From: Patescibacteria group bacterium UBA5147
GTDB taxonomy: Bacteria; Patescibacteriota; Saccharimonadia; UBA4664
NCBI GenBank assembly: GCA_002415345.1
Contig: DHXV01000001.1
Span: forward strand, 248,907 to 312,906
Direction of reading: 5' to 3'
DNA: 64,000 nt
Shown here: positions 9,832 through 63,650 of the stretch, piece by piece
How positions within the stretch are numbered: the stretch's first letter is position 1
Layout of the letters: every line of letters starts with the position of its first letter
Position numbers and translations under genes: made by a program
Notes under the pieces: generated by a model
Told to the model about the DNA's origin: nothing
What the model saw: only the letters and a program-made list of their open reading frames with translations
Database searches by the model: none

Positions 9832-10589
9832 TCTCGCAGGTCCTTGCCGGTTAAGTCGATAAACACGTCTTCCAGCGTGGCGGCCTGGACATCAACGTGA
9901 GGTTTAAAGCCGCGCTCCAGCAGATCCTTGATAAGTTTCTTTGGGGCATCCAGAGCAATAATCTTGCCGTCGTCCATGATGGCCACGCGGTCACAGAGCA
10001 CCTGGGCCTCTTCCATGTAATGAGTGGTGAGAATGACGGTCACGCCCTCGTCGCGGATCGACCGGACCAGCCCCCACAGGTTGCGGCGGGCCTGCGGATC
10101 AAGGCCGGTAGTCGGCTCGTCTAAAAACAGTACCTTGGGCCGGTGAACCAAGGCCACGGCAATACTGAAACGTTGCCGTTGCCCTCCTGAGAGCTGCTCC
10201 GGATAGGCTTTGGCCTTGGACTCCAGCCCCACTTTGCCGAGCAAGCCCATTACGTCGGCCTTGCCGCCATACATGGCGGCAAACGCGACGATCAGTTCGC
10301 CGAGGCGTACCTCATCCAAAAAAGCCGAGCTCTGCGGCTGGACGCCAATGATTTCTTTGACGCGCTCCACGTTCGAGGCCACGTCAATGCCGTCGATTGC
10401 AACCGAGCCTCCGGTGATATCCCGCAGCCCCTCCATCATCTCCAGAGTCGTGGTTTTCCCCGCGCCATTGGGACCCAGGATACCGAAGACTTCACCGAGT
10501 TTGACGTCGAAGGATATACCCTTGACGGCTTTGATTTCGCCGTAGGTTTTCCTGAGCTCCTGAACTGAAATAAAAGCGTTTTCTGGCAT
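9828..10589 (-). CDS. ABC transporter ATP-binding protein
   Basis: Walker A GPNGAGKTT, ABC signature LSGGQRQR, Walker B VLFLDEPTTGLD. Confidence 0.9.
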   Translation of the reverse strand: MPENAFISVQELRKTYGEIKAVKGISFDVKLGEVFGILGPNGAGKTTTLEMMEGLRDITGGSVAIDGIDVASNVERVKEIIGVQPQSSAFLDEVRLGELIVAFAAMYGGKADVMGLLGKVGLESKAKAYPEQLSGGQRQRFSIAVALVHRPKVLFLDEPTTGLDPQARRNLWGLVRSIRDEGVTVILTTHYMEEAQVLCDRVAIMDDGKIIALDAPKKLIKDLLERGFKPHVDVQAATLEDVFIDLTGKDLRE

Positions 10590-19728: not shown

Positions 19729-19751
19729 TTAGTGTATGTTTAACACTATAA
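19729..19751. promoter_or_regulatory. Palindromic operator TTAGTGTATGTTTAACACTATAA overlapping the nadE -10 region (candidate NrtR site)
   Basis: Inverted repeat TAGTGT-N7-ACACTA 16 nt upstream of the nadE GTG start. The same motif occurs at 30922-30945 and 22461-22481. Confidence 0.5.
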
Positions 19752-19766
19752 ATGAGGTCTTAACTC

Positions 19767-21692
19767 GTGAATCAACTCAAAGATATCATTCAAGCGACTG
19801 CCGCCACACCGCGACTAACGGTCGGCGACGTTACGTTTAACGTCGATCAGACTATTGAAACCGCTCGCTCGCTGACTGACTCTTCCCTCATCGTCTTCCC
19901 CGAACTGGGCCTCACTGGCTACACATTGGCCGATTTGGTGCACCAACCAACGCTCCTGACTGCGGCACGGCTTGGACTCCTAGAATTAGCCGAACAGTCC
20001 GCCGATATCCCGGCCATTCTCATCGTCGGGCTGCCGCTTGACGTCCAAAGCCGGCTGTTTAACGTGGCGGCAATCGTTTACGTCGGCCAGATTCTAGGCA
20101 TCGTCCCCAAGGTCTACCTGCCCAACTACCAGGAATTCTACGAGGCACGCTGGTACGTGAGCGGCGAGAACCTTACAGCAAGCGAAGTTACCATCGGCAA
20201 TCAGACCGTACCCATCGGCACCGATCTGCTCTTTGACTGCCCTGCCGTCCCCGGTCTCACGCTGGGAGTGGAAATTTGCGAAGACCTGTGGGTTCCGTTG
20301 CCGCCCAGCACGTTCATGGCCTTAAGCGGTGCCACCGTCATCGCCAATCTCTCGGCGTCCAATGAACTGGCGGGCAAGGCCGGCTATCGCCGCGATCTGG
20401 TGGTGCAACAATCGGCCCGGTTGCGCGCGGGGTACGTCTACGCCTCGGCCGGGGTGGACGAATCCACCACCGACCTGGTGTTCGGCGGCCACAACCTGAT
20501 TGCCGCTAACGGCCAACTATTGGCCGAATCCCAGCGGCTGGTGCGCGCCTCAACCGCCATCAGCGCCGACATCGATCTGGCTCACCTGGCCTTTGACCGC
20601 CGCCGCGCCGGAACGTTCCGCTTACCGGCCGGCCTGCCCGCGCCCAATTACCGCCGCATCCCCGTGCCGCTAGAGGCCAAAGCCGATTCGCACCTAATCA
20701 AACCACCGTCCGCGGCGCCGTTTGTCCCGTCGAACGGACCCGAACTAGACGAGCGCACCCAGGAAATATTCAACCTCCAGGCCGCCGCGCTCGCCAGTCG
20801 CCTGCAGCAATCGGGCATCCGTGAGGTCGTACTGGGGCTGTCGGGCGGGCTCGATTCCACCCTGGCGCTCCTGGTCGCCGTCCGCGCGCTGAGCGAGCTA
20901 GGCGAGCCGCTCACCCGGCTCCACGCCTTTACGCTGCCCGGCATGGCAACCTCCGGCCGCACCAAATCGAACGCCCACCGCCTGGGCCAGGCTCTGGAAA
21001 TCCAGGTCGAGGAAATTGCCATTTCCGAGGGCAGCCTGGGGCAGCTGCGCGATATCGGCCATGACGCAACCACCCAGGACGTCACCTACCAAAACGCTCA
21101 GGCCCGGTACCGGACCACCTTACTGCTAAACAAGGCCAATCAGCTGGGCGCGATGGTGCTTGGAACCGGCGACCTCTCCGAAATCGCCCTGGGTTGGGCC
21201 ACCTTTAACGGCGACCACATCTCCCACTACCACGTCAACGCCGGTGTCCCCAAGACGCTCGTAAGGCACCTGGTAACCTGGGCAGCACGTCAAAGGGAGT
21301 TCACAACCGCCCGCGCTACGCTGCTGGATATCGTCGATACGCCTATCTCCCCTGAGCTCACTAGCGGCGGCAAGGACGCCCTCGACCAGTCGACAGAAGC
21401 CCTTATCGGCCCCTACGAACTGACCGATTTTTATCTTTACCACTTCATTCGGTGGGGCGATAATCCGGCCAAGATCCTGGCCCTGGCAGGGGAGTCCTTT
21501 GCAGGCATTTACACAGGTGACGAGCTAAAACTTTGGCTCACCTCGTTCATCAAGCGCTTCTTCGGTGCCCAATGGAAACGGTCCGTCATGCCGGATGGCC
21601 CCAAAATAGGCTCCGTTTCCTTGAGTCCTCGGGGTGACTGGCGCATGCCGTCCAGCATGACTGCCGAAACCTGGCTCCGTGAGTTACAATAA
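19767..21692 (+). CDS. nadE: Glutamine-dependent NAD+ synthetase (N-terminal nitrilase/CN-hydrolase domain plus C-terminal NAD synthetase domain)
   Basis: 641 aa. C-terminal PP-loop SGGLDS. N-terminal carbon-nitrogen hydrolase fold with catalytic-Cys context (GVEICEDLW). Confidence 0.9.
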   Translation: MNQLKDIIQATAATPRLTVGDVTFNVDQTIETARSLTDSSLIVFPELGLTGYTLADLVHQPTLLTAARLGLLELAEQSADIPAILIVGLPLDVQSRLFNVAAIVYVGQILGIVPKVYLPNYQEFYEARWYVSGENLTASEVTIGNQTVPIGTDLLFDCPAVPGLTLGVEICEDLWVPLPPSTFMALSGATVIANLSASNELAGKAGYRRDLVVQQSARLRAGYVYASAGVDESTTDLVFGGHNLIAANGQLLAESQRLVRASTAISADIDLAHLAFDRRRAGTFRLPAGLPAPNYRRIPVPLEAKADSHLIKPPSAAPFVPSNGPELDERTQEIFNLQAAALASRLQQSGIREVVLGLSGGLDSTLALLVAVRALSELGEPLTRLHAFTLPGMATSGRTKSNAHRLGQALEIQVEEIAISEGSLGQLRDIGHDATTQDVTYQNAQARYRTTLLLNKANQLGAMVLGTGDLSEIALGWATFNGDHISHYHVNAGVPKTLVRHLVTWAARQREFTTARATLLDIVDTPISPELTSGGKDALDQSTEALIGPYELTDFYLYHFIRWGDNPAKILALAGESFAGIYTGDELKLWLTSFIKRFFGAQWKRSVMPDGPKIGSVSLSPRGDWRMPSSMTAETWLRELQ

Positions 21693-22374
21693 TGGCATGC
21701 CTAACTTTCCTAAGCCGTTACCGGAAATCCAGATGACGGTGGACGTCATTATTTTCACCGTTACCGCCGGCCAATTGAACGTACTGCTCATCCGCCGCCA
21801 AAGCGAGCCGTTCGCCGGTACCTGGGCACTGCCCGGCGGCTATTTGCAGGCCGATGAAATCTCGGAGGACTCCGCCATTCGCGTCCTGCGCGACAAAGCC
21901 GGCGTGCGTGAGCCGTTCATCGAGCAACTCTATACCTTTGACGCCCTTGACCGCGACCCGCGAGGCCGCCTGGTCTCCATCGTCTACTACGCGCTGGTGC
22001 CGGAAGAGTCGCTCAAGATTAACACTCGTCCCGACCTGCAGAATCCCACGCTCGTGCCCGTCACCGCCCTGCCCGACCTGGCCTTCGACCACGCCGACAT
22101 GGTGGAATACGCCATCACGCGCCTGCAGTCAAAGCTGGAGTACACCAACGTAGTCTTCTCGCTGCTGCCGCCCACCTTCACCTTTACCGAGTTGCAGCGC
22201 ACCTACGAGGCCATCCTTGAGCGACCGCTCGACAAGCGCAACTTCCAGAAGAAATTCGCCTCGCTGGGCCTGATTGAAGCCACTAGCGAGATGACCTCCG
22301 GCGACAAACACCGTCCGGCCCGTCTCTACCGTTTCATCGATAACAAACCGACCGAACTGAAGAAGTTCTTCTAA
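21679..22374 (+). CDS. nrtR: NrtR-like Nudix-related transcriptional regulator (degenerate Nudix domain plus C-terminal winged-helix-like domain). Start probably ATG 21697
   Basis: 231 aa. Nudix-like segment GGYLQADEISEDSAIRVLRDKAGV with degenerate catalytic residues. Embedded between nadE and pncB. The track start is GTG and overlaps the nadE stop. Confidence 0.65.
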   Translation: MSYNNGMPNFPKPLPEIQMTVDVIIFTVTAGQLNVLLIRRQSEPFAGTWALPGGYLQADEISEDSAIRVLRDKAGVREPFIEQLYTFDALDRDPRGRLVSIVYYALVPEESLKINTRPDLQNPTLVPVTALPDLAFDHADMVEYAITRLQSKLEYTNVVFSLLPPTFTFTELQRTYEAILERPLDKRNFQKKFASLGLIEATSEMTSGDKHRPARLYRFIDNKPTELKKFF

Positions 22375-22460
22375 AACGGCGCCTGATCGTATTAGGTTGA
22401 TGCTTTGTCATGACTTAGTGTTGACAATACAGTAACTAGGGTATATATTCAATTTGTAAG

Positions 22461-22481
22461 GTGTAATAAATACACTAAGCA
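22461..22481. promoter_or_regulatory. Palindromic operator-like site AGGTGTAATAAATACACTAAG upstream of pncB. A related half-site CTTAGTGT lies at 22415-22422 overlapping a TTGACA -35 box
   Basis: GTGTA-N5-TACAC palindrome with a right half matching the nadE and PP2C-operon sites. ~20 nt upstream of the pncB RBS. Confidence 0.4.
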
Positions 22482-22500
22482 ACTTGATAAGGAGCCCCTA

Positions 22501-23733
22501 ATGCTAACCGACCGCATCATCCAATCTTTGCTCGACAACGACTTCTACAACTTCACCATGGGTCAGCTCATCTGGCAGCACTTCGCCACCGTCGACGTGA
22601 GCTACCGCTTCATCAACCGCACCCGCGGCGGAGCGGATCTGGCCACCCTGGTGGACCCTCACGAGTTCGATAGTCAGGTGCAGGCGGTGCGGAAGCTACG
22701 GTTCGGCAACCAAGAGCTGGCCTACCTCCGAACGCTCGGAATATTTGACGAGGGCTACCTCGCCTACCTGCGCAACCTGGAACTTCCGGTCGTCACCCTG
22801 AACGTGCGTGACGGCGAGCTTGGCATCGACTACCACGGCCCGTGGGCGGCGGCCATCCTTTGGGAAACGCCTCTGCTTGCCATCGTCAACGAACTAGCTG
22901 CCCGTACCCTGGGCAGCGGCCGCGAGGCGCAGATTGAAGCCGAGGCCCGCCGGCGTTTTGAGGCCAAGCTCGTCACTCTTAAGGCCAGCCCCGACGTGAA
23001 GTTCGTGGAGTTCGGTACCCGCCGTCGCGCCAGCTTCGCTCATCAACGATGGGTTCTGCAGCGCTTGGCAGCTGAGGTGCCCGCCCAGCTGCTCGGAACG
23101 TCCAACGTGGAACTGGCTCGCCAAACCGGCCTCACCCCCATGGGAACCATGGCCCACCAGTTGTTCATGGTGACGACGGCCCTTGAGGCAGCCGCCGGCA
23201 GCGACCACCCCATCGCCACCTCTCAAGCCAAGGTACTGGACCTCTTTGAGGCCGAATACGGCGGCGTCCGGGGCGGCAAGCTGCTCACCTTCCTGCCGGA
23301 CACCTTCGGCACGGAGACGAGTCTGGCCCTCCTGGAACCAAGCCGCGCCGCCCGCTGGGCCGGCTTCCGTCAGGACTCCGGTGACCCGTTTGAGGTCGGC
23401 GAGAGGCTCATCACCTATTGGGAGCAGGGCGGCATCGACCCGCAGGCCCAAAGCCTGATGTTTAGTGACGGTCTGGATTTGGACCTGATGAAGCGGCTGG
23501 CGGCGCGCTTTGGCAACCGCACCAACGTCGCCTTTGGCTGGGGCACCAACCTCACCAACGACACGCCGGTTCCGCCGCTGTCCATCGTCATCAAGCCGGT
23601 GGCAGCCAATGGCTACGCCGTCGCGAAACTCAGTGACAACCTGGCCAAGGCCACGGGAGAGGCGGCCACAATCGCCTCCCTCAAGCAGGAAGCGGGTTAC
23701 CATGTCACCTTCCGTATGGCGACCGTTTACTGA
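22501..23733 (+). CDS. pncB: Nicotinate phosphoribosyltransferase
   Basis: N-terminus DRIIQSLLDNDFYNFTMGQ is the PncB signature. 410 aa. Strong AAGGAG RBS. Confidence 0.85.
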   Translation: MLTDRIIQSLLDNDFYNFTMGQLIWQHFATVDVSYRFINRTRGGADLATLVDPHEFDSQVQAVRKLRFGNQELAYLRTLGIFDEGYLAYLRNLELPVVTLNVRDGELGIDYHGPWAAAILWETPLLAIVNELAARTLGSGREAQIEAEARRRFEAKLVTLKASPDVKFVEFGTRRRASFAHQRWVLQRLAAEVPAQLLGTSNVELARQTGLTPMGTMAHQLFMVTTALEAAAGSDHPIATSQAKVLDLFEAEYGGVRGGKLLTFLPDTFGTETSLALLEPSRAARWAGFRQDSGDPFEVGERLITYWEQGGIDPQAQSLMFSDGLDLDLMKRLAARFGNRTNVAFGWGTNLTNDTPVPPLSIVIKPVAANGYAVAKLSDNLAKATGEAATIASLKQEAGYHVTFRMATVY

Positions 23734-23803
23734 TCCACCCGCCCCGTCTGCGCGAAATGCGCAGACGAGGCCTTCTCATGTATGCTAAGTCCAAGGAATC
23801 ATT

Positions 23804-24589
23804 ATGCAACCCACGATTATAACCGCCCCCACCGAGACAGCCCGAAAGGCCCATAAGCAGCTGCAGGCGGCTCTCGAAAGCACCACGCTCCACCTGGACC
23901 GACCGGTCGTCTTTGCGGTGGGCGGCGACGGCACCATGCTGCGCGCCATCCGCGAATCCTGGCAAGACGACCCGATATTCGTCGGTATAGCGGCTGGCCA
24001 TTTGGGATTTTTGCAGGCCTTTGAACCCGAGCAAATCCCGGAGGTCCTGACTGCCCTTAACACGCTTAAGCCACAGACGATTTCCGCCCCGCTGATCGCG
24101 GCCTGGGACCAAACTGGCCAGCCCTTTGGCTACGGTTTCAACGACATTTCACTGGAACGCTCCGGGGCGCGGGCCAGCCGGTTCCATTTGGACATCGATG
24201 GTTCAACCGGCAGTTTCATCGGCGACGGCGTCATCTTTGCGACGGCCTTCGGGTCCACCGCCTATTCGTTGGCGGCCGGCGGCCCCGTCATCGATTCGCG
24301 CCTCCGCGACGTCTTTGTGGTCACCCCCAACAATCCGCACGTCTCAACCCAATACTCCAGCCTCCAGCGCCCGCACGTCCTGCAGCGCGGGCGCCAGGTT
24401 AAACTGCATCTGACAACCGAGGACGCCGTCGAGCGGCCGACCCAGCTCGTCATCGACGGCAATACGGTCGAGAAGCAACTCACTGGGACCGTGACCATAG
24501 CTCTGTCGAATAAGACCATCTCCTTTTTACAGCTTGAGGCCGACAGCTTCCATGCGCGACTCGATGCCAAGCGGCTGGGGCGATCATGA
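23804..24589 (+). CDS. nadK: NAD kinase
   Basis: GGDGT motif (VVFAVGGDGTMLRAI), NE/D motif, DGxxxxTxxGSTAYSLAAGGP. Confidence 0.85.
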   Translation: MQPTIITAPTETARKAHKQLQAALESTTLHLDRPVVFAVGGDGTMLRAIRESWQDDPIFVGIAAGHLGFLQAFEPEQIPEVLTALNTLKPQTISAPLIAAWDQTGQPFGYGFNDISLERSGARASRFHLDIDGSTGSFIGDGVIFATAFGSTAYSLAAGGPVIDSRLRDVFVVTPNNPHVSTQYSSLQRPHVLQRGRQVKLHLTTEDAVERPTQLVIDGNTVEKQLTGTVTIALSNKTISFLQLEADSFHARLDAKRLGRS

Positions 24590-26181
24590 GCATCACCAAC
24601 ATCCTTATTCCCGGCCGTCATCACGTTCTGACGAATTTCCAGCATGACTATTTGAGCCAACTCATAGCTGACCCGACCAGCGTTCGCGATACCGGCGGTA
24701 AGGCTGTGAATTTGGGCTCTGAACTCAAGTTTATCTGGGCCGTCACCAGCGCCAACCATGCAGGCACCCGCCGCAATCCCCTGCCCGGCCACCGGCGCGA
24801 AGCGGCTATCGAAAAATTCGCTTTGGGCGCGCCATCATACGTTTTTCCAATCGATAACGTCGGTGAATCACCGCGGTTCGCCGACCATACCATCAAGGAA
24901 ATCGAGGTGCTCAGCCGCGGACAGTTCAGGTTGACTCCAAAAAATACCGTCGTGGCGGTGTCGACGCCGGCGGTCATCGACCTGTATGAGAAACTCGGCT
25001 TTGTCATCCTGCCAATGGAACTATCGAGTCGTGAAACCGGCGCGTCGTCCGCTCCCCGCGCTTGGGATATCGTCCTGGCGATTGCGGCGGCCGGTGCGGA
25101 GTGGCGCGCCGATAAGACCTATCTTGAGCTGGTTCATCCGGCATCAAAAGATATCTTGGAGCGCTACCGTCTCGGCGATTTGATCGTGGACGTCCACAAC
25201 GACCCGCTGCTAAGCGACGAAGGCGACATCACCGAACATCGCGATTACGCCACCTACCGCCAGGCCTTTGACGAGGGTGCCGAACGCAAATACGGCCCGA
25301 TGAGTGGCTATATCAAGCCCGGTCGCATAGTGGATGTTGGCAGTGCCACGGGTTCCATCATCAAACTCATGAGCGACGACCCGGCCTTAGCCGATGCGGA
25401 TTTGTACGGCATTGAAGTTGCCCGGCCGCTGTATGAAATCTGCCGGCAGCGCAAGGCCAACGAGGAATTTGGCAACGAAAACACCTTCTTTTATCAACGC
25501 AACATCATGACGGGCAAGCTCTTCCCCGATAATACCGTCAATACCACTACCACATTTGCCCTGACCCATGAGATTGATTCCTACATCGGCCGCGACGGAT
25601 TGAACAAATTTATAACCCAAGTCTACGACCAAACCGCTCCTGGCGGCGTTTGGATAAATTCTGACGTCGTCGGGCCAGAGGGCGGTGAGAAAATTGTTTG
25701 GCTGTGGCTAGCTACTACCGACGGGCAAAACGAGACCGACGAGCAAAAGTCGGCCAATTCTCCGGCCTCGGGCGGGTATCTGGCGAACCTGCCCACCGCC
25801 GCGCGCTTCAAGCGTTTTACCCAAGACTTCCGCGCCGACGAGGGCGATGGTTTCACGGCCGAAATAGCCCTGCGCGAAGGCAAAACCTACGCCTTGCTCC
25901 GTCTGGCCGACGCCGTGGAGTTCATGGTTACCAAAGACTACACGCAGAGCTGGTACAGCGAAATGCACGAGCGATTCTGCTACTGGTCGATTGATGATTG
26001 GAGGCAGGCCGTTACCGCTGCCGGCTTCACCGTCCATCCCGATTCCGCCGCCACCCGCAACGATTGGATAGTCCACAACCGCTGGGCCGGCCACGTCGCA
26101 CTGCTGCGCGAAACCGGCGGCAAGCTTGAGCCGATGGAATTTCCGGTAACGAACATGTTGCTTATAGCCGAGAAAAAATAG
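24586..26181 (+). CDS. Fusion protein: N-terminal ~230-aa domain (possible nucleotidyltransferase-like, His-rich PGRHHVLTNFQHDYL segment) plus C-terminal class I SAM-dependent methyltransferase domain
   Basis: SAM motif I IVDVGSATGSI. 531 aa. ATGA overlap with nadK. Domain assignments are by eye only. Confidence 0.5.
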   Translation: MSITNILIPGRHHVLTNFQHDYLSQLIADPTSVRDTGGKAVNLGSELKFIWAVTSANHAGTRRNPLPGHRREAAIEKFALGAPSYVFPIDNVGESPRFADHTIKEIEVLSRGQFRLTPKNTVVAVSTPAVIDLYEKLGFVILPMELSSRETGASSAPRAWDIVLAIAAAGAEWRADKTYLELVHPASKDILERYRLGDLIVDVHNDPLLSDEGDITEHRDYATYRQAFDEGAERKYGPMSGYIKPGRIVDVGSATGSIIKLMSDDPALADADLYGIEVARPLYEICRQRKANEEFGNENTFFYQRNIMTGKLFPDNTVNTTTTFALTHEIDSYIGRDGLNKFITQVYDQTAPGGVWINSDVVGPEGGEKIVWLWLATTDGQNETDEQKSANSPASGGYLANLPTAARFKRFTQDFRADEGDGFTAEIALREGKTYALLRLADAVEFMVTKDYTQSWYSEMHERFCYWSIDDWRQAVTAAGFTVHPDSAATRNDWIVHNRWAGHVALLRETGGKLEPMEFPVTNMLLIAEKK

Positions 26182-26197
26182 GCCTGCCCACAAGAAA

Positions 26198-26232
26198 AGC
26201 CCGCTTTAGATGTAAGTCCAAAGCGGGCGTTG
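26198..26232. terminator. Bidirectional intrinsic terminator (AAAAGCCCGCTTTAGATGTAAGTCCAAAGCGGGCGTTGT)
   Basis: GCCCGCTTT/AAAGCGGGC stem between convergent genes. Confidence 0.55.
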
Positions 26233-26238
26233 TAGTTC

Positions 26239-27042
26239 TTAGCCGCCGAAGCCACCCATGCCGGTGAGCTGCGAGAAGTTCGCGGCCTGCGAGGCGCGGA
26301 CGGCGGACTGGCTGACGGTCTGGAAAGCGCGGCGGATCTCACTGGGGCTGTTGCCCGGGGTGAGGATCCATTCGTCCAGGATGCCCATGTCACGGAAGAC
26401 CTGGTGGAAGTCCGTGTAGCCGTCGTCGATGCCCATGCCGATGATGATGTGGGCCTCGGTGCGAAGCAGGCCTGCGACCATCTGGCGGACGCTGGCGGCG
26501 TCTTGGGCGTACGAATGAGCGTCGGCGCCGTCGGTGACGATGACCGTGACGGCCCGGGCGGCGACGCCGCCTTGTTCGAACTCGGCCATTTTGGCGGCCA
26601 CACCGGTGAGGGTAACGGCCGTCTGATCGTAGAGCGGGGTGCCACCCATGGGGTCGTAGTTGCCCGAATCCAGGCGCTCGGCCCCATCCAAGGTGCGGTA
26701 CGGGTAGAGCACGCCATGGTCGGTGCCGCGGCTATCGTTGAGGTAGCGGCAACTGGCCAATACCGCGGCGGACTGCTTAGTGGCTTTGAGCGAATCGATG
26801 ATCAGGTTGTGGCCGTCGCGTACCAACTGGGCGTTGGAGCCGAAACGGATCGAGCCGGAGTCATCGAGCAGCTGGGTAACCAGCAGGACCTCGGAGCTCT
26901 CGATGTCGTCGAGCTTGACCGAGCCGAGGCCGGCCATGATGGCGGGACCCATGGTGTCGGCGGCAAGCTGCATGGTTTGGGTGGCCTGGTCGTCCAGGCC
27001 CGCATCGCCCAGGAGGGCGGTGAGGTTAGCGGTGGAGCTCAT
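26239..27042 (-). CDS. von Willebrand factor A domain protein (TerY-like)
   Basis: MIDAS motif DDSGSI (DxSxS) and VIVTDGADA. 267 aa. Last gene of the PP2C-kinase operon. Confidence 0.7.
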   Translation of the reverse strand: MSSTANLTALLGDAGLDDQATQTMQLAADTMGPAIMAGLGSVKLDDIESSEVLLVTQLLDDSGSIRFGSNAQLVRDGHNLIIDSLKATKQSAAVLASCRYLNDSRGTDHGVLYPYRTLDGAERLDSGNYDPMGGTPLYDQTAVTLTGVAAKMAEFEQGGVAARAVTVIVTDGADAHSYAQDAASVRQMVAGLLRTEAHIIIGMGIDDGYTDFHQVFRDMGILDEWILTPGNSPSEIRRAFQTVSQSAVRASQAANFSQLTGMGGFGG

Positions 27043-27105
27043 AGCAGTGTCCTTTCAGGACGGGAGTGGGCGGGGGGGCCGGTCGGCCGCCCCGCGGGTT
27101 GAGCG

Positions 27106-28170
27106 TTACAGCTTGATGTCGGGCCACTGCTCCATCGGCGTGGTCGACGAGACGACGTGCATTCCGGCGGCCTTGAACTTGTCGAAGGCCGCGGTGGCGT
27201 CAGCCTCGTAGCTGTAAATCAGGTTGCCGGCCGGGTCCTTTACCACGATGGGCGTGGTGCAGTCTTCCAGCAGGTAGACCTTGCGGGCCAGCGACGGATC
27301 CTTGGCCGCGATTTCGCGGATCAGGTCATCGATGGTCCAGGCGACGCAGTGGCTCTTGGCCTGGCCAAAAATCACCAATACGTCGTAATCGAGCAGCTTC
27401 TGCACGAAGGCCGTGTTGCGCGGCACCGGTGTGCCGTTGAACAACTCCTTGACCTCCGGGCCCAACACCGAGTAGTTCTCGACCCAGGGGTTGGTCCCCT
27501 TGACCTCGAACCCGGTCTGGGCGCCGCGGGCCACCGCGTGGAAGAACGCCGCCTCTTCGACGCCGCTCACCAGGGTGTGTCCCTTGCCGCCGAGCATGCC
27601 GTGGAACGGCCAGATGGTCAGGGCGTAGCGCCCGGCCTTCTCGAGCTCACGGGTGTAGTGCTCCAGCTGCCTCTGGGCCGCCGGGTAACTGGTACCCAGA
27701 GCCGAGCAGAGCTGAGGACTGACGTGCCATTGACCGCTCTGCACCTCGTCGTGAGTGACGTTGGTGAACGGTGCGGGGTGGTTACCGTCGGGGTCGACCA
27801 GGAAGGTCTGATGGAAGACGGCGTAGGCGCGGTGAGTGTCCAGAGTGAAATCAAGCCCCGTCAGACGGTGCATGTTCCGGTAGAGCCACTCGGTGGTCCG
27901 GATGCTGTCATCGACGGCTCCGGTGCCGGAAGCTCCGGCGACGTAGAGCTCGCCGTGCGGGTTGCAGAACGTCTCCTGGACATCGATACCCAAGGCGCCG
28001 ATGCGGACATGGTCGGTGGATGCCGCCTTGATCCCCTGCTGACCGCGCCAATTACGGGCAGCGGCCTCCAGGGCCTGGTAGTTGACCCACCGCGTGTGGT
28101 CGACGACTCCTTTGGGGTCGTAGTGCGGGGGCAGCGGGAGTTCGTTGTGGTTCATCTTGTTCTCCTTCAC
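27106..28170 (-). CDS. pncA: Long-type nicotinamidase / isochorismatase-family cysteine hydrolase (PncA/Pnc1-like). Likely start ATG 28155
   Basis: Matches to the Pnc1/PncA family: GIDVQETFC (compare VVDMQNDF), DTHRAYAVFH, IWPFHG, and VLVIFGQAKSHCVAWTIDD (compare VVGIATDHCV, catalytic Cys). An AAGGAG RBS lies before the internal ATG. Confidence 0.65.
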   Translation of the reverse strand: MKENKMNHNELPLPPHYDPKGVVDHTRWVNYQALEAAARNWRGQQGIKAASTDHVRIGALGIDVQETFCNPHGELYVAGASGTGAVDDSIRTTEWLYRNMHRLTGLDFTLDTHRAYAVFHQTFLVDPDGNHPAPFTNVTHDEVQSGQWHVSPQLCSALGTSYPAAQRQLEHYTRELEKAGRYALTIWPFHGMLGGKGHTLVSGVEEAAFFHAVARGAQTGFEVKGTNPWVENYSVLGPEVKELFNGTPVPRNTAFVQKLLDYDVLVIFGQAKSHCVAWTIDDLIREIAAKDPSLARKVYLLEDCTTPIVVKDPAGNLIYSYEADATAAFDKFKAAGMHVVSSTTPMEQWPDIKL

Positions 28171-30032
28171 TTGATGGTGAGCAGGCTGATGACGCGGGCG
28201 GAAACAGCGTAGATTCCGCCTGGCCCCGGGTGGAGCCGGGTGGTGCGGTCAACGAAGCTGGCGGTATCCGGGAAGGTTTGCGTCACGGAGATGGCTCCGT
28301 TATCGGCTACGATCCTAAGGATACCGTCGTCGGTGGCGGCAAACAGCGAAGTGCCACCTGCGAACCGACCATGAATGCCGGCTGCCAGCCAGGAATCTTC
28401 GTCCTGATTGGCCTCGGCGTGGGCTATGACCGTACCTGAGCCGTCGATCACGTAGCAGTGGTTCACTAGGCGGCCGCTGCGTTGAACGGTAGCTAGGAGC
28501 CAGGCGTAATGATCGGAGATGGCGCAGGTCGCGTCGATGAGCTGGCCGGTGAAGGCCGGGATATCGACGCGGTCGTTGACGGCCTGGCCGCCTGTTGCGA
28601 ACACGAAGGCCCGCATCAGGCTTCCCGCCTGGTAGAACCCGAGGCCGAAGCTGGGGCCCGCCCAAAACAAGGTACGGCCGGTCAGTACGTCACCGACGTA
28701 GTCGCTGCCAAGCCGGGTACTGCGCCGGAGTTGGCCGTTTTGGAGCCAGAACCAACGCGTTCCCGCGGTATCAAAGACCGGCGTGCTACCGGCCGTATCG
28801 ACCGCCAGACGCTGCGGAGCCTGGTCGGGACTCAGAACGATGAGCCGATTGCCCCGCCCGATGAGCGTAGCGTCTTCGGCAATCCCGTAGCGTACGCCGG
28901 GTTCGAGTACTCCGGCCAGAACCTCACGGTCATTCTCCCGACGGAAACTATTGCCCTCATGGTAGAGGTAGCGCAGTTTGTCGCCGGTGGTCGTAACCTT
29001 GAGGATTCGGCCGGTGGTCTTAAAGACCTGCGTCGCCGTGACCGTTCCGCGGATCACCACGGTTTGGCGGACGACTCCAGGCCTCGCACACCCCGGACAA
29101 CTGTCCCGGGCGTGGCTCAGGCCGCACTGATTGCAAACCGTCCAACGGGCCGCCTGCAGGAGAGCGAGCGGAAATTCCTCGCGGCGGTCCCGGTTAAAGA
29201 CGGCCGCAAATCGTTCCGCCAGCTCGTCGGGCAGGACGCCCAGCGGCAAGGCCGGCTTGGGGTAGATAACCTCCGGCGAACCGATCCCGAGGCGCTTCAG
29301 GACGCGAGCGTCATGTTGCAACCGCGGGCCCGTCGCCGGCCGGTGAACGCCGCCATAAGGCCCGGCGTAAAGCAGGGTCTGATGGAGCATCACCGCAAAG
29401 GCGTACCAGTCCGACGCCGAATTATGCGGTCGGAGCGGCGTGAGACTGCCTGAACCGCAGATGAGTGGATCCACGAACCGCGCCGTATAGGCGTGACAGA
29501 GGAACCGTCCGAACTGCAGGCTGTCGGCATCTACTAGGTGGAGCTGGCCGTCAGTTTCGACGAGCACGTTCAAGTCGTTGAAATCGGCGATGACGATGCC
29601 GAGCCGGTGGAGGGCTGCAACGACCCCGTGGAGTCGCACGAACACCTGCAAGGCCTGATTGCCGTCAATGGCTCCGGATTCCCGGAAGTGCCGGTCGCCG
29701 AAGCGCAGCAACGGTTGGGTGCCGATCAGCAGCGGCATGGCGTAGCCGACGATTCGCCGGCCGGAGCCGGAACGGGCCAACTGCCCGGGGACTACCACTT
29801 GTGGCGGCAGGCCGCTCGGAAAAGCCGGTAGCTTGGTCTGGTGTTCGCTGATCCGGTGGGTCGCACCAATCTGGGCCAGATGGTCGGCAGCGTAGGCGGG
29901 GTCGCTGGCTAGTTTATACAGCTTGAGTACCCGGTCGCCGCCGATATCGTAGATATCCGCCTCGCCCCCGCTGCCGATGATGGCGCGGGGATCGAGCCGG
30001 AGCCGTTTTCCGCCGAGCGTGACCTCGGTCAT
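28167..30032 (-). CDS. Ser/Thr protein kinase (Hanks-type, TerY-P triad-like) with C-terminal Cys4 zinc-ribbon and a ~300-aa beta-rich domain
   Basis: Gly loop IGSGGEADIY. VLK lysine. Catalytic loop LHRLGIVIADFNDLNVLV. A DAD in place of DFG (LVDADSLQFG). CNQCG...CPGC. 621 aa. ATGA overlap with the PP2C gene. Confidence 0.7.
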   Translation of the reverse strand: MTEVTLGGKRLRLDPRAIIGSGGEADIYDIGGDRVLKLYKLASDPAYAADHLAQIGATHRISEHQTKLPAFPSGLPPQVVVPGQLARSGSGRRIVGYAMPLLIGTQPLLRFGDRHFRESGAIDGNQALQVFVRLHGVVAALHRLGIVIADFNDLNVLVETDGQLHLVDADSLQFGRFLCHAYTARFVDPLICGSGSLTPLRPHNSASDWYAFAVMLHQTLLYAGPYGGVHRPATGPRLQHDARVLKRLGIGSPEVIYPKPALPLGVLPDELAERFAAVFNRDRREEFPLALLQAARWTVCNQCGLSHARDSCPGCARPGVVRQTVVIRGTVTATQVFKTTGRILKVTTTGDKLRYLYHEGNSFRRENDREVLAGVLEPGVRYGIAEDATLIGRGNRLIVLSPDQAPQRLAVDTAGSTPVFDTAGTRWFWLQNGQLRRSTRLGSDYVGDVLTGRTLFWAGPSFGLGFYQAGSLMRAFVFATGGQAVNDRVDIPAFTGQLIDATCAISDHYAWLLATVQRSGRLVNHCYVIDGSGTVIAHAEANQDEDSWLAAGIHGRFAGGTSLFAATDDGILRIVADNGAISVTQTFPDTASFVDRTTRLHPGPGGIYAVSARVISLLTIK

Positions 30033-30868
30033 GTTGGATCACTTCCTTTGGCAAGTCGGCCGACGATCATGGTGGTATCGTCAGGCAGCAATCCGTGGTC
30101 GGTCGTTACCCCGCCGGTCGGCGTGCGACGGGTTACGTCGCGGCCAATCAGTTTCAGGCGGCGGCTTAGCACGGCCGGATTGCGGAAAACCGCCTCATCC
30201 GTCCAGAATTGGGCTATGGGCCCAACCGGAACCGATGAACCGGGCAGGGGATGGCCCGCCAGTCTCAGCAGGTCGCAGGCTCCGTCCGTTCCAATGAGGA
30301 ACGATTGCAGCTGCGCCATGGAAACCTCGCGAACCAGTTCAAACCGCGGACCCTCCCCGGATAGTAGCCCATACCCCAGGTATGGCGGCTGATTTCCGGG
30401 AAACGGACCGAGTTCAATCACCTCGTCGTTAACTACGACGAGGCCGTCACCAACGGCGACGAAGCGAGCGGTTTGGGCGGTCATAACGCAGGCGACCAGC
30501 GTGAACAGGAAGTATTCCTGGACGTTGGCCTCGTAGCTGCCGCCCAGATTGCCGGCCAGCTGATGCAGACCGGCCAGGATATGGCGTTCAACCAGCCGCC
30601 AATCGACGGCTCCCTGGCGCTCTAACTGCCATTGGATGCTGCTGATAGCCAGCCTGGCGCCCAGCACTGCCCCAACCTCGCTCCGCGCGCTCGAACCACA
30701 ACCATCGGTAACGACGGCGACAGCGAAATCGGGCGTGCTGACGAAGGCGGAAGCGTCCTGAGAATTGCGCGGGATAACCCGGTGGTCACGGCCGATGACA
30801 CTGCCAGCGGCAAGTTCGAAACTCCGGAGATCCATGATGCCTCCCTTGGTAATGAGACTAAGTTTCAA
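30029..30868 (-). CDS. PP2C-family Ser/Thr protein phosphatase (likely start ATG at 30835 with an AAGGGAGG RBS)
   Basis: Metal-binding motifs VAVVTDGCGSS, VAVGDGLVV, GTDGACD. The track start is TTG. First gene of a four-gene coupled operon. Confidence 0.7.
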   Translation of the reverse strand: MKLSLITKGGIMDLRSFELAAGSVIGRDHRVIPRNSQDASAFVSTPDFAVAVVTDGCGSSARSEVGAVLGARLAISSIQWQLERQGAVDWRLVERHILAGLHQLAGNLGGSYEANVQEYFLFTLVACVMTAQTARFVAVGDGLVVVNDEVIELGPFPGNQPPYLGYGLLSGEGPRFELVREVSMAQLQSFLIGTDGACDLLRLAGHPLPGSSVPVGPIAQFWTDEAVFRNPAVLSRRLKLIGRDVTRRTPTGGVTTDHGLLPDDTTMIVGRLAKGSDPT

Positions 30869-30921
30869 TGAACCTTAGTTAATGTAGAATTAACAGTAAC
30901 TGTATTCAGTGTAGGACCACC

Positions 30922-30945
30922 TTAGTGTATTGTCAACACTATTAA
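30922..30945. promoter_or_regulatory. Palindromic operator TTAGTGTATTGTCAACACTATTAA upstream of the PP2C-kinase-pncA-vWA operon (candidate NrtR site). An adjacent ACAGTAACTGT palindrome lies at 30894-30904
   Basis: Near-identical to the nadE operator (TAGTGT-N7-ACACTA). ~90 nt upstream of the PP2C ATG. Confidence 0.5.
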
Positions 30946-42973: not shown

Positions 42974-43053
42974 ATCCTCATAATAGCAAAAAGAGCCCGT
43001 AAAGGCTCTTCTCAGAGTATAATCACTGCCCCATCATTGTCGGCAGGCGTATG

Positions 43054-43248
43054 CTACAAATGCAAAAAGGTCAGAAACGCATGGACAAGAAATGCCGGCC
43101 AGAATATGGCCTTGAAAATGCCAACGATTACCAACCAGAAACTAGTGGCATGCTGAAAGTAGTAAATGGCCGCCCCAATCAGGCCAAGTCCATATACCGC
43201 GTCACCACCACCCCGATTCACGCTCGCGCTCTTTAGTCTTGCTCTCAT
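43054..43248 (-). CDS. Small membrane protein, hypothetical
   Basis: 64-aa track ORF with 2 TM helices. Confidence 0.3.
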   Translation of the reverse strand: MRARLKSASVNRGGGDAVYGLGLIGAAIYYFQHATSFWLVIVGIFKAIFWPAFLVHAFLTFLHL

Positions 43249-43250
43249 TT

Positions 43251-43559
43251 CTATGCCTCCTTATCTTCAGGAAGACCGGCAAAGTCCTTCTTCGTCTGGA
43301 TATACCATCCCATTCCCGCGATGGGATTTTTCCATCTGCCCTGCATCAACTTCAAGGCGCTCTGGTGCGTTTCGTCACCCCCTGCAACCATCGCTTTTAG
43401 ATGGGCGTCTTCCGCTTTGATAACGTCATCGGCCGTTTTTCCGTGGAAGGCTACATCACATGGACCACCCATTTGTTTACACGTCATTGTCTTCATAATG
43501 CTTCTCACTTTCATACGCATTATAGCGTAATGTTTCGTGAGCGATATTAGAACCGCCAT
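43251..43559 (-). CDS. DUF1059-like small protein (probable start MKTMTCKQMGG at ~43509)
   Basis: MTCKQMGGPCDVAFHGKTADDVIKAEDAHL resembles the DUF1059 family. Confidence 0.45.
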   Translation of the reverse strand: MAVLISLTKHYAIMRMKVRSIMKTMTCKQMGGPCDVAFHGKTADDVIKAEDAHLKAMVAGGDETHQSALKLMQGRWKNPIAGMGWYIQTKKDFAGLPEDKEA

Positions 43560-43570
43560 AGTTTTTCAGT

Positions 43571-44086
43571 CTAAGCCAAGCTCAGGGTAGCCGAATAGTC
43601 TCCCGGGTTCTCTTTGAACGTGGCGCCATTCTTCCTCCATATCCGCACCGACGCTGCAGCAGTTTTTGGAATGGTTGCCACCAGCTTGCTATCGCCGTTT
43701 GCCTTGGCCTCGTCGATTATCAAATCAAAGGCCTTTGTGGCATATCCTTGGTTCCACTTCGCACTCGAAAGCCAATATCCAACTCTTGCGCAGCCTTGCT
43801 CCAAACCTTTCCGAGAAATAGATATGGTGCCTATCGGCATATCACCAAGCAGAAGGCAGTATGTCTGCCCGTCCTGCCTTTCCATCCACTCTTCACATGT
43901 ACGCAAGAAACTGCTGGCATCGATATGCCCGTGGCTGCCCAAGACGGCTTGTAACTCAGCGTCCGTCTGGAGAATTCGGACAAGATCCGAGGCATGCTGT
44001 CGGCCTAAAGGTTGGAGATGAATAGGCATAGTATATGTCCTTTTACTACGGATCGTGGCGGAAGTTAGAACCATAATGGCCGGCAC
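43571..44086 (-). CDS. GNAT-family N-acetyltransferase (probable start MPIHLQPLG at ~44031)
   Basis: GNAT pattern (VGYWLSSAKWNQGYATKA). The upstream in-frame extension contains a degenerate repeat copy and is probably non-coding. Confidence 0.55.
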   Translation of the reverse strand: MPAIMVLTSATIRSKRTYTMPIHLQPLGRQHASDLVRILQTDAELQAVLGSHGHIDASSFLRTCEEWMERQDGQTYCLLLGDMPIGTISISRKGLEQGCARVGYWLSSAKWNQGYATKAFDLIIDEAKANGDSKLVATIPKTAAASVRIWRKNGATFKENPGDYSATLSLA

Positions 44087-44497
44087 TTACATAAATTCGT
44101 GACGATACTTTTCGACATTGGCTTCAAATGGCAGCTTCGAAATCTCAACTTCTACGACAGATTCTGGCAATCCTGAAATATCAAAACATCTTACCGGTTT
44201 GCCCGTTTTATTAAACGTATTTATCTCCGAGAGCATCCCATCACTTATGTCTCCATACACCCACAGCTCATCACATCGGAGAAGCAGGTTGTTGTTACCA
44301 TTACGTACCATGTCACGCTCGACCAACTCGTACAGGTAATAGCCAAAAACATTGAAGGGATTAATGGGCACTACGCCTTCGTTAAATGCATGCCGACAAA
44401 TCAACATTCGTTGATGAAAGTTCTTGGCTGACTGGGCTGTAAATACAACCAACTTTTCCGCAACCAATTTGTCCGCTGAATGTTGAAAGCTATTCAT
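44087..44497 (-). CDS. Hypothetical protein (136 aa)
   Basis: Cassette ORF, low GC, no motif recognised. Confidence 0.4.
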   Translation of the reverse strand: MNSFQHSADKLVAEKLVVFTAQSAKNFHQRMLICRHAFNEGVVPINPFNVFGYYLYELVERDMVRNGNNNLLLRCDELWVYGDISDGMLSEINTFNKTGKPVRCFDISGLPESVVEVEISKLPFEANVEKYRHEFM

Positions 44498-44545
44498 AGC
44501 ATGAGTATAACAAAAGAGGCCATCGCTTGGCCTCTGTTGAGTTGA

Positions 44546-44582
44546 ATAATATCTGGCTCCGGGTCGTGGTCGATGTTAGAAC
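44546..44582 (-). repeat. Cassette-associated direct repeat copy R4 (AATAATATCTGGCTCCGGGTCGTGGTCGATGTTAGAAC on the + strand)
   Basis: Abuts the stop of 44582..45013 and is followed by an intrinsic terminator hairpin (AGAGGCCAAGCGATGGCCTCT plus TTTTGTT on the minus strand). Confidence 0.8.
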
Positions 44583-45013
44583 TATGCTAACGCAGAATCT
44601 ACGTCTTGCTGCGTAACGTCAGAAAACGGCACTCTCGGATCGTTGTAGTGACGAGTTCGGTAAATTTTGTTATCTCTTACCTCGCAAACGGCTACCTGAG
44701 GTGTTAGATACAATTGACCCGTTTTGGGATTTGGATAGCTCTCAACAAACTCGATCATGACTGTTTGCTTGGACTCATCAGCCATAGCATTCACGAATTG
44801 ATATTTGCGATCCTTAATCTGATATACCTCACCTATGCTTTTCCGAGCCGTTCCTGCACTAACATATGGGAACAGAACGTTGCCTCTGTTACCCATCGAC
44901 ATTTCGGTAGCCTTAAAATCATCGGCCACCAGTTCAAGGCCCCGAGTAACGTCATTCTGGCGTTCTGCTTCGAAAGAACCAAGTACCAATTTGAGTAAAT
45001 TTTCGCTAGTCAT
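44582..45013 (-). CDS. NTF2-like / SnoaL-like small protein
   Basis: 143 aa with an NTF2-like fold pattern by eye. Cassette ORF. Confidence 0.4.
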   Translation of the reverse strand: MTSENLLKLVLGSFEAERQNDVTRGLELVADDFKATEMSMGNRGNVLFPYVSAGTARKSIGEVYQIKDRKYQFVNAMADESKQTVMIEFVESYPNPKTGQLYLTPQVAVCEVRDNKIYRTRHYNDPRVPFSDVTQQDVDSALA

Positions 45014-45059
45014 ACTAGTATAATATCAAAGATGAGCCCTAATGGGCTCATCTTTGGGG

Positions 45060-45098
45060 AATAATATCTGGCTCCGGGTCGTGGATGACGTTAGAACC
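45060..45098 (-). repeat. Cassette-associated direct repeat copy R3 (AATAATATCTGGCTCCGGGTCGTGGATGACGTTAGAAC)
   Basis: Lies 2 nt beyond the stop of the Nudix cassette gene. Followed on the minus strand by the terminator hairpin AGATGAGCCCTAATGGGCTCATCT plus TTTGATATT. Confidence 0.8.
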
Positions 45099-45099
45099 G

Positions 45100-45618: not shown

Positions 45619-45672
45619 ATAGCCATTATGGGCTAGTCTGATTCAAACGTCCAAAGTAAACAGTTTTGTATG

Positions 45673-45710
45673 AATAATTCCTGGCTCTGGGTCGTGGTCG
45701 ATGTTAGAAC
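45673..45710 (-). repeat. Cassette-associated direct repeat copy R2 (AATAATTCCTGGCTCTGGGTCGTGGTCGATGTTAGAAC)
   Basis: ~45 nt downstream of the stop of 45757..46080. Confidence 0.8.
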
Positions 45711-45756
45711 TCTGATTAGATCAGGCTCTTATACAAATATTTCGCGCAATTATATT

Positions 45757-59497: not shown

Positions 59498-59503
59498 CTG
59501 TTT

Positions 59504-63641: not shown

Positions 63642-63650
63642 GACTCAAAG

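Follow-up and report, generated by a model that had tools for sequence, protein, structure and literature searches.

A short palindrome recurs in this locus in front of genes for nicotinamide adenine dinucleotide (NAD) synthesis and in front of an operon for a PP2C-type phosphatase, a protein-kinase-like protein, a nicotinamidase-like enzyme and a vWA-domain protein, raising the question of whether one regulator governs them all and to what signal it responds. The locus lies within a 64,000-nucleotide stretch of the genome of Patescibacteria group bacterium UBA5147 (contig DHXV01000001.1), which was analysed at its full length and is called the window here. Taken as a whole, the observations are best explained if the palindromes are operators of an NrtR-family repressor encoded between nadE and pncB, a conclusion that we consider very probable from sequence comparisons. 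Saccharibacteria-like ultrasmall epibionts have reduced genomes and rely on salvaged cofactor precursors, and the way they sense NAD and restore it is relevant to their dependence on a host.

Palindromes at three promoter regions

The window holds five copies of a 21-bp palindrome with the consensus TTAGTGT-N7-ACACTAA, spread over three promoter regions (Table 1). An earlier sequence-only reading of this DNA had pointed to shared repeats at nadE, pncB and the PP2C operon; all are present, and the five sites in fact found lie far above shuffled sequence. Two copies match TAGTGT-N7-ACACTA exactly: TAGTGTATGTTTAACACTA at 19730-19748, upstream of nadE, and TAGTGTATTGTCAACACTA at 30923-30941, in front of the PP2C operon on the minus strand. 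The repeat nearest pncB is real and reads aggtgtaataaatacactaag, but it lies at 22459-22479, 2 nt away from the 22461-22481 originally assigned to it. The element on the -35 of pncB, described before as a CTTAGTGT half-site, is likewise real but is a full site with one mismatch (TAGTGTTGACAATACAGTA, 22416-22434). Finally, the PP2C operon had been credited with a single site, and a second one was found (TAATGTAGAATTAACAGTA, 30880-30898), 43 bp from the first, as in the pncB pair.

With up to two mismatches allowed, the pattern occurs six times in the window where 0.88 would be expected; in 100 dinucleotide shuffles the count never rose to six. The sixth match, at 55426, has a low matrix score and is probably due to chance. 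A 21-bp matrix built only from the sites of other genomes scored the five sites at 21.5-26.6 bits across the 64 kb, the next best position reaching 11.7 bits; in Markov shuffles the top score had a mean of 11.6 and a maximum of 17.7 bits.

Each of the window sites overlaps a promoter-like hexamer pair. The pncB promoter, TTGACA-17-TATATT at 22421-22449, matches the consensus at 11 of 12 positions; its upstream operator (O1) holds the -35 and the downstream one (O2) begins 9 bp past the -10, at the transcription start or in the early leader. The PP2C-operon promoter (TTGACA-17-TACACT, 30936..30908, a 10/12 match) mirrors this layout on the minus strand, with the -35 inside O1, the -10 at 30913..30908 and O2 beyond it. 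At nadE, the operator overlaps both candidate -10 hexamers identified by manual reading, TATGTT (19735-19740) and TATAAA (19747-19752). Since all of the sites are placed on core promoters, NrtR bound there would obstruct RNA polymerase, as has been proposed for the family. The only Rfam match in the window is a tRNA; the scan gave neither a riboswitch nor a leader RNA near the sites. Fixed helical phasing of the paired operators, which are 43 bp apart in both window promoters, is ruled out by spacings of 22-48 bp in relatives.

An NrtR-family regulator and its probable sites in relatives

The gene between nadE and pncB had been read as an NrtR-like Nudix regulator, and the domain searches agree. 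Its product gives a full-length Pfam NrtR_WHD match (2.4e-25, 88.9 bits against a cutoff of 27, positions 1-61 of 61) and a NUDIX match (3e-13, 50.4 bits against a 21.1-bit cutoff), and aligns over its full length in the PDB with BtAraR of Bacteroides thetaiotaomicron (5bs6, 9e-44) and with SoNrtR (3gz5, 2e-32). The features that define the family, namely both domains, the operator type and a conserved linkage to NAD genes, are all found here, and sequence comparison makes the protein a family member rather than an orthologue of the seed of the NCBIfam equivalog NF050029. As nrtR most likely begins at ATG 21697, 5 nt past the nadE stop codon, the two genes are probably co-transcribed and autoregulated.

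Known NrtR motifs are 21-bp palindromes with a conserved GT-N7-AC core that overlap promoters or sit between the promoter and the start codon (PMC2330246). The operators of BtAraR (AAAGTGTTACTTTTACACCCA, AGAGTGTATTTGATACACCAA and AAAGTGTAAAAAAGACACTTA) have a GTGT-N7-ACAC core, and its crystal structure shows that K179, R180, N181 and K184, together with R205 of the wing, 'define the GTGT motif' (PMC4666351). These five residues align with D179-K-R-N-F-Q-K185 and R206 of the window NrtR (DKRNFQKK ... HRPA), and the K, R, N, K and R are kept in all Saccharimonadia-type orthologues compared. We assign the palindrome to NrtR on the basis of its 21-bp GT-N7-AC geometry, the BtAraR-like core and reading residues, and the linkage to nrtR. 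An orthologue from a Variovorax megaplasmid, 46% identical, has the recognition helix changed to NKVSFRRK, and the divergent promoter next to it carries two 21-bp palindromes with outer TTAGT/ACTAA arms and without GTGT, which suggests a small but telling covariation.

Comparative footprinting, which had been put forward as a check, was positive in two sets of relatives. The first comprises ten loci (235 kb), the window and nine others bearing the same four-gene cassette (L001, L010, L011 and L013-L018), and all ten (10/10) have the motif upstream of the cassette or of an operon that includes it. Its 13 sites with at most one mismatch all fall in nrtR, nadE, pncB or cassette promoter regions, compared with 0.27 in shuffles. 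The spacer varies between orthologous sites and the arms stay fixed, while the 19-bp core of the window's PP2C-operon O1 is identical to operators of L010 and L015. The pncB promoter of L015 has the same arrangement of operator and -35 as the window, with a second site at the same relative position; in L011, L014 and L016 the site is downstream of the -10 and off the -35.

The second, independent set came from a metagenome scan with a profile of the cassette's long nicotinamidase (long PncA), which gave 80 further loci (689 kb). At a matrix threshold of >=15 bits, 12 of the 80 contain sites, 30 in total, nearly all of them directly upstream of regulon-type genes. A site precedes the cassette in seven of the eight cassette loci (L027, L028, L029, L031, L076, L087 and L105), and further sites precede nrtR, pncB and nadE-nrtR, or nrtR-longPncA(-pncB) operons (L035, L038, L043, L060, L089). 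Other targets are pnuC-nadR, an ADP-ribosylglycohydrolase gene, a His-phosphatase gene, and a gene for a phosphoribosyltransferase-like protein, with QRPTase_N as its sole Pfam match, ahead of a classical PncA of the isochorismatase family. Judged by sequence, the further predicted targets in relatives are NAD/ADP-ribose genes.

The regulator gene itself adjoins the cassette in L001, L011, L014, L015, L018, L027, L028, L029, L031 and L105, lying upstream in the same operon (L001), heading nrtR-pncB-cassette (L015), divergent (L018) or convergent (L011, L014). The cassette stands within NAD operons in L001 (nrtR-cassette-NMNAT-like-pncB, where a cytidylyltransferase-like gene and pncB follow the vWA gene), in L015 and in L081 (nadE-cassette). 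The proposal that the NrtR regulon takes in the cassette is thus supported by motif type, reading residues and comparative footprinting.

Some further observations concern the sites and leaders of these relatives. In L076, a near-identical segment of ~43 bp holding a double operator (ATAGTGTAATAT[T/A]TACTATAT plus TTATTGTAAATAATACAATAA) occurs at 4653-4695 and at 10108-10150, one copy upstream of the PP2C cassette and the other upstream of the operon of the QRPTase_N-like gene and classical PncA; it looks like a duplicated promoter-operator module. Seven of nine aligned loci (L011 7262-7290, L014 7262-7292, L013 7230-7260, L016 7225-7255, L015 7240-7265, L017 and L018) share a conserved leader element, approximately G-AC-TTAACAA-TTGGAACCA-ACA, placed 15-40 nt upstream of the ribosome-binding site of the PP2C gene. 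It is kept in L015, whose cassette comes after pncB, is missing in the window and L010, whose leaders are short, and could be a second regulatory signal, either an RNA structure or another binding site. The contig search with NrtR yielded one useful relative (L001) plus Bacteroidota AraR/XylR-like loci. In L002-L006 (Chitinophaga, Spirosoma, Nibrella) the matrix finds TAATTGT-N7-GACATTTA or TAAGTGT-N7-ACACTAT beside NrtR/AraR-like genes at 15-24 bits, suggesting that the GT-N7-AC operator architecture is common to this branch of the family.

The NAD genes and the four-gene cassette

The gene calls made earlier for nadE, pncB and the PP2C-kinase-pncA-vWA operon were all verified, by Pfam and NCBIfam or, for pncA and vWA, by AlphaFold2 (AF2) models and Foldseek (Table 1), with the kinase read as a kinase-like protein and pncA as a nicotinamidase-fold enzyme.

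Table 1. Predicted operators, genes and terminator of the NAD locus, in window coordinates; ORF, open reading frame; operators of the PP2C operon are given as on the coding strand.
Feature	Position	Strand	Details
Operator O(nadE), TTAGTGTATGTTTAACACTAT	19729..19749		Exact match; 26.5 bits; single site; 18 bp upstream of nadE GTG
nadE, glutamine-dependent NAD synthetase, 641 aa	19767..21692	+	Pfam NAD_synthase and CN_hydrolase; NCBIfam NF002730 801.9 bits (cutoff 473)
nrtR, Nudix-related winged helix-turn-helix repressor, 225 aa from ATG 21697 (ORF open from GTG 21679)	21697..22374	+	Pfam NrtR_WHD and NUDIX
Operator O1(pncB), TTAGTGTTGACAATACAGTAA	22415..22435		1 mismatch; 23.2 bits; encloses -35 TTGACA (22421-22426)
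Operator O2(pncB), AAGGTGTAATAAATACACTAA	22458..22478		2 mismatches; 21.5 bits; centre 43 bp from O1
pncB, nicotinate phosphoribosyltransferase, 410 aa	22501..23733	+	Pfam NAPRTase and NAPRTase_N; NCBIfam NF003704 391.7 bits (cutoff 379)
nadK, NAD kinase, 261 aa	23804..24589	+	Pfam NAD_kinase and NAD_kinase_C; downstream of pncB, without an operator of its own
NMNAT-like::methyltransferase fusion, 531 aa	24586..26181	+	Overlaps nadK stop; weak methyltransferase Pfam matches
Intrinsic-terminator-like hairpin	26199..26228	-	12-bp stem with 7 GC pairs, then T-run; between the convergent vWA and 531-aa genes
vWA-domain protein, 267 aa	26239..27042	-	Metal ion-dependent adhesion site (MIDAS) D60-x-S62-x-S64 ... 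T135 ... D171; S/Q-rich C-terminal tail
Long nicotinamidase-like cysteine hydrolase, 349 aa from ATG 28155 (ORF open from 28170, 354 aa)	27106..28155	-	AF2 and Foldseek
Protein-kinase-like protein, 621 aa	28167..30032	-	Predicted kinase domain, C4 zinc ribbon (C300, C303, C312, C315), ~300-aa C-terminal region
PP2C-type phosphatase, 268 aa from ATG 30835 (ORF open from TTG 30868)	30029..30835	-	Pfam PP2C_2 5.7e-16, 59.1 bits (cutoff 24)
Operator O2(PP2C operon), TTACTGTTAATTCTACATTAA	30879..30899		2 mismatches; 22.1 bits; centre 43 bp from O1
Operator O1(PP2C operon), ATAGTGTTGACAATACACTAA	30922..30942		Exact match; 26.6 bits; encloses -35 TTGACA (30936..30931)

The minus-strand operon of four genes extends from its operators to the hairpin terminator. 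Its first gene encodes the PP2C, for which the ATG at 30835, preceded by GGGAGG, is probably the true start, in agreement with the starts of orthologues; the gene overlaps the kinase start by 4 nt. All kinase hidden Markov model matches of the 621-aa protein fall below curated thresholds (Pfam Pkinase E 0.0017; NCBIfam LanL kinase region 1.8e-10), and a profile of it matches catalytic-loop regions of S6K and PknE with E 0.013-0.02. G22-G23, K37, D150/N155, D168/D170 and the four zinc-ribbon cysteines are invariant in nine orthologues. Residues ~320-621 (28167-29070, minus strand) are conserved, with many invariant Gly, Trp and Asp residues, and matched no family; they are possibly a sensor or propeller-like domain.

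Given that sequence searches returned nothing for the remaining two proteins, their identities rest on AF2 models and Foldseek. The 354-aa protein had no match at E<=1 in Pfam (including Isochorismatase) or NCBIfam (including PncA) and no PDB sequence match. Its AF2 model has a pLDDT score (predicted local distance difference test) of 87.8, and the top Foldseek matches are the nicotinamidases 2wta, 3v8e, 2h0r, 3r2j and 3o91 (E 3e-9 to 4e-5), nicotinamidases filling PDB ranks 1-14 throughout (E 3e-9 to 8e-5, TM(target) 0.67-0.76). No variation is seen at D63, D111-x-H113, K224-G225, Y233-S234 and C275, and hardly any at H120, the conserved residues sitting in PncA-like motifs (DxQxxFC, KG...YS and SHCV); D63/K224/C275 and D111/H113/H120 correspond to an Asp-Lys-Cys triad and a metal site by reading, not by superposition. 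In a profile comparison with 3irv and 2wt9, the first and last motifs align weakly. On the strength of the model, the protein is a nicotinamidase-fold enzyme whose activity is predicted. It resembles PncA/Pnc1 (A. baumannii 2wta, yeast 2h0r, S. pneumoniae 3o91) in its isochorismatase-like fold and its putative catalytic and Asp-His-His metal residues; unlike these enzymes it is ~140 residues longer, through an N-terminal extension and an insert of ~100 aa, shares 14-18% identity with them and escapes the Isochorismatase model of Pfam. Its homologues number at least 7,993, and many carry the label Candidatus Saccharimonadales or Saccharibacteria.

The 267-aa protein had no match in Pfam, NCBIfam or PDB sequence searches, and its AF2 model (pLDDT 88.7) has only vWA and integrin I domains as its top Foldseek PDB matches; across 9 and 27 orthologues, neither the MIDAS nor the tail residues vary. 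The tail (residues 244-266, VSQSAVRASQ...FSQ..GGFG) is invariant or nearly so across the 27, its last residues being modelled with low confidence, and the S-Q motifs repeated in it mark it as a candidate phosphorylation target of the co-encoded kinase. In L010 (5488-6498) and L028 (10060-11103), a DraG-like ADP-ribosylglycohydrolase gene lies directly downstream of the vWA gene, with its own predicted NrtR site at 10053 in L028; it is absent at the corresponding window position, where the convergent 531-aa gene lies instead.

This 531-aa protein combines an N-terminal domain resembling NadM-type adenylyltransferases of nicotinamide mononucleotide (NMN) and nicotinic acid mononucleotide (NaMN) with a C-terminal class I S-adenosylmethionine-dependent methyltransferase. 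Used as a profile, its N-terminal 235 aa match the archaeal NMN adenylyltransferase (NMNAT) MJ0541 (1f9a, E 5.4e-05), and the position of the (H/T)xGH motif reads PGRHHxLTNFQ. More than 1,300 full-length homologues occur in Saccharibacteria, Planctomycetota and Gracilibacteria, and the orthologue often adjoins the cassette, after it in L015 and before it in L028 and L087. The fusion is our candidate for the adenylyltransferase step that acts on NaMN, which is otherwise missing.

Effector, rival explanations and proposed mechanism

The Nudix box of the window NrtR is degenerate, REUxEE being replaced by RVLRDK, as is typical of other non-catalytic NrtRs (PMC6800001), and is predicted to be catalytically dead. 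The window protein retains R34, R86 and H132, whose counterparts in BtAraR (R34, R86 and H131) bind the ribose or arabinose hydroxyls, and position 89 is Arg, like R98 of SoNrtR, which contacts ADP-ribose (PMC4666351). BtAraR, by contrast, has Gly at 89 and a pocket filled by Tyr5, senses L-arabinose and controls arabinose utilization (PMC4666351). The few pocket residues, taken together with the regulon content, favour ADP-ribose or a related nucleotide as the effector. BtAraR is still the closest solved homologue, with identical DNA-reading residues and 21-bp operators of the same GTGT-N7-ACAC build, and its tandem operators, 3 or 42 nt apart and each bound by one dimer, resemble the window pairs (PMC4666351).

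Several points weigh against the account given here, in whole or in part. Operator binding and regulation are predicted from sequence, and the nadE promoter hexamers are weak and were assigned by hand. The cassette locus L081 has no recognizable site, its cassette lying directly downstream of an NAD synthase gene in a longer operon, and the available sequence of L010 (an 8.8-kb contig), L013 and L017 has no nrtR. With respect to the effector, the window NrtR scores only 164.8 bits against the 400-bit cutoff of NF050029, which describes the ADP-ribose-responsive NtrR, the closest solved homologue of the window protein is an arabinose-responsive AraR rather than an ADP-ribose-responsive NrtR, and in the L001 orthologue position 89 is Leu. 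With respect to the cassette, L076 encodes a classical PncA in addition to the long one, both under the same motif, so that the long enzyme may not be a plain nicotinamidase and its substrate may differ; the roles of the kinase, PP2C and vWA proteins are speculative.

Since three of the operators hold the -35 TTGACA, part of the similarity among the sites is promoter sequence, and one could suppose that the palindrome is a mere promoter consensus or a dispersed genomic repeat (of the kind of repetitive extragenic palindromes or miniature inverted-repeat transposable elements) devoid of operator function. We give this next to no credence: the 64 kb contain the five sites and none elsewhere, the conserved arms TAGTGT/ACACTA lie outside the hexamer and stay fixed as the spacer varies, and the sites of L011, L014 and L016 are not on the -35 at all. 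It also seems very improbable that another transcription factor binds the palindrome and that the proximity of nrtR is coincidental. The link between protein and DNA is a predicted one, and L013 and L017 lack an nrtR gene within 10 kb of the site; however, nrtR is the only recurrently adjacent regulator gene, whether divergent, upstream or convergent, sites precede nrtR itself in L001, L011, L014, L015, L027, L031, L035, L038 and L043, and both the motif geometry and the GTGT core fit the structural data for NrtR and AraR.

More serious alternatives accept the operators and question what they serve. The sites could be NrtR operators while the effector is NAD, another pyridine nucleotide or a free sugar, the regulon then answering a different signal. 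The sub-threshold NF050029 score and the ranking of BtAraR ahead of SoNrtR among the PDB matches point that way, and effectors do differ within the family, NdnR of C. glutamicum responding to NAD and AraR to arabinose (PMC4666351). We nevertheless regard this as unlikely, because the predicted targets are all NAD/ADP-ribose genes with no pentose gene among them, ADP-ribosylglycohydrolase genes belong to the regulon in relatives, and position 89 is Arg as in SoNrtR. Decidedly unlikely, in our judgement, is that the cassette is primarily an anti-phage or conflict system of TerY-P type with a nicotinamidase-like effector, not a housekeeping first step of salvage, and that it shares control with NAD genes only because manipulating NAD is what such systems do. 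The TerY-P triad was reportedly defined by Anantharaman et al. in 2012, with a defence version said to be described by Gao et al. in 2020. As defined in PMC11090510, it consists of a TerY-like vWA protein with a MIDAS, a PP2C and a Ser/Thr kinase with a C-terminal zinc ribbon, and TerY-P-like modules act as stand-alone defence systems (PMC11090510). The window triad appears to have the same three component types, the kinase part judged from sub-threshold matches and invariant motifs; the kinase also has weak PADLOC matches to the defence kinase PD-T4-6, and the separate classical PncA of L076 is in keeping with an effector role. In addition, long PncA occurs without the triad in ~65 of the 80 independent loci, so the triad appears to be an addition specific to a subset of lineages. 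Against this, the cassette proteins of sampled relatives are 36-83% identical to those of the window (46-83% for the long nicotinamidase), and the cassette lies in syntenic NAD loci, within NAD operons in three cases, instead of in variable islands. A PADLOC scan at E<=10 gave no TerY-P match for any of the proteins, and we rejected filing the cassette as a TerY-P defence system. It further differs from TerY-P in three respects: the gene of a nicotinamidase-fold enzyme stands between those of the kinase and the vWA protein, the kinase has an additional C-terminal region of ~300 aa, and the module is under a predicted metabolite-sensing repressor and lies in NAD operons rather than in ter or restriction loci.

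If the palindromes are NrtR operators, as we hold, an NrtR dimer would bind each 21-bp site through its winged-helix domains, as homology suggests, with the K-R-N-K recognition helix reading the GTGT/ACAC cores, and would occlude RNA polymerase from the promoters on which the sites are observed to lie. At pncB and the PP2C operon a strong upstream operator on the -35 would act with a weaker second one, 43 bp downstream over the transcription start, whereas nadE-nrtR would be governed by a single operator over the -10. For induction, a NAD-derived ligand, most likely ADP-ribose from NAD cleavage, would bind the dead Nudix domain and the ligand-bound repressor would leave the DNA. The long nicotinamidase would then convert nicotinamide to nicotinate, PncB would form NaMN, the NadM-like domain of the 531-aa fusion would form nicotinic acid adenine dinucleotide (the least certain step) and NadE would produce NAD, with NadK and NrtR itself also being made. 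More speculatively, the PP2C, kinase-zinc-ribbon and vWA triad may be a phosphorylation switch on the nicotinamidase-vWA pair, or may signal NAD status.

A possible, if doubtful, extension is that the triad with its embedded long nicotinamidase is a NAD-status signalling module that links a TerY-P-type conflict module to NAD homeostasis. The ADP-ribose-sensing repressor would switch the module on when NAD is cleaved, for instance by phage-triggered or host-derived NADases, and phosphorylation of the S/Q-rich vWA tail, or of the enzyme, would gate the recycling of nicotinamide. Such a link would be kept across the sampled cassette-bearing Saccharibacteria-like genomes and, in part (nrtR, long PncA and vWA), on Variovorax megaplasmids.

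Control of NAD genes such as nadE and pncB by NrtR is already known and is textbook comparative genomics; we see here a well-supported new form of a known regulatory system, and hold the regulatory claim with high confidence. Known regulons include pncB-nadD-nrtR-nadE in Cyanobacteria, pncB-nrtR-pncA and nadE in Blastopirellula, and nrtR-pncA and pncB in Roseiflexus (Rodionov et al. 2008, PMC2330246). The window shares with them a Nudix-like winged-helix regulator within an NAD locus, 21-bp GT-N7-AC operators overlapping promoters and the targets nadE, pncB, nicotinamidase and nrtR itself, and its relatives add pnuC-nadR and the DraG-like ADP-ribosylglycohydrolase, both seen in NrtR regulons before (PMC2330246). 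It differs in its Saccharibacteria-like lineage, part of the candidate phyla radiation and absent from the taxa of Table 1 of PMC2330246, in a divergent 350-aa nicotinamidase co-transcribed with PP2C, kinase-zinc-ribbon and vWA genes, which the main text of that paper leaves unmentioned, and in an adenylyltransferase step apparently carried by a NadM-like::methyltransferase fusion. Our literature search found no description of an NrtR-controlled TerY-P-like triad in which a divergent nicotinamidase is embedded, and no report of NrtR or a reconstructed transcription-factor regulon in Saccharibacteria-like or other candidate-phyla-radiation bacteria, of a widespread 350-aa nicotinamidase-like family missed by standard domain models, or of a nicotinamidase linked to vWA or PP2C proteins. 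A triad of a kind otherwise tied to tellurite resistance and phage defence is here hard-wired to a nicotinamidase-like family. With a precise operator, a regulator whose DNA-reading residues are predicted and a four-gene operon, phosphorylation control of NAD salvage becomes testable.

Parts of the system also appear in other phyla. In L025 (Variovorax sp. SRS16 plasmid 2, NZ_LR594667.1, 5240-9915), the nrtR orthologue is divergent from a long PncA (29% identical, labelled 'cysteine hydrolase'). Downstream are a distant homologue of the 267-aa vWA protein (24% identical, E 2e-4), a nucleoside 2-deoxyribosyltransferase-like gene and a NAD kinase gene; macro-domain and Nudix genes lie upstream, and the two palindromes of the divergent region read TTAGT-N11-ACTAA. 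L024 (Vibrio vulnificus) is listed alongside it for the nrtR-longPncA-vWA core, which from these sequences appears to be cross-phylum and is possibly mobile. The unexplained 'nrtX-nrtY' NrtR targets of Rodionov 2008 (Proteus mirabilis, Hahella, Kineococcus, Frankia, Streptomyces) might be this long PncA-vWA pair; a literature search turned up the two names in no further publication. Elsewhere in the window, the GC content falls to 0.43-0.50 at 43001-46000 and 59001-64000, where the window as a whole averages 0.55 and the NAD region has 0.63-0.65, and these low-GC segments may have been horizontally acquired.

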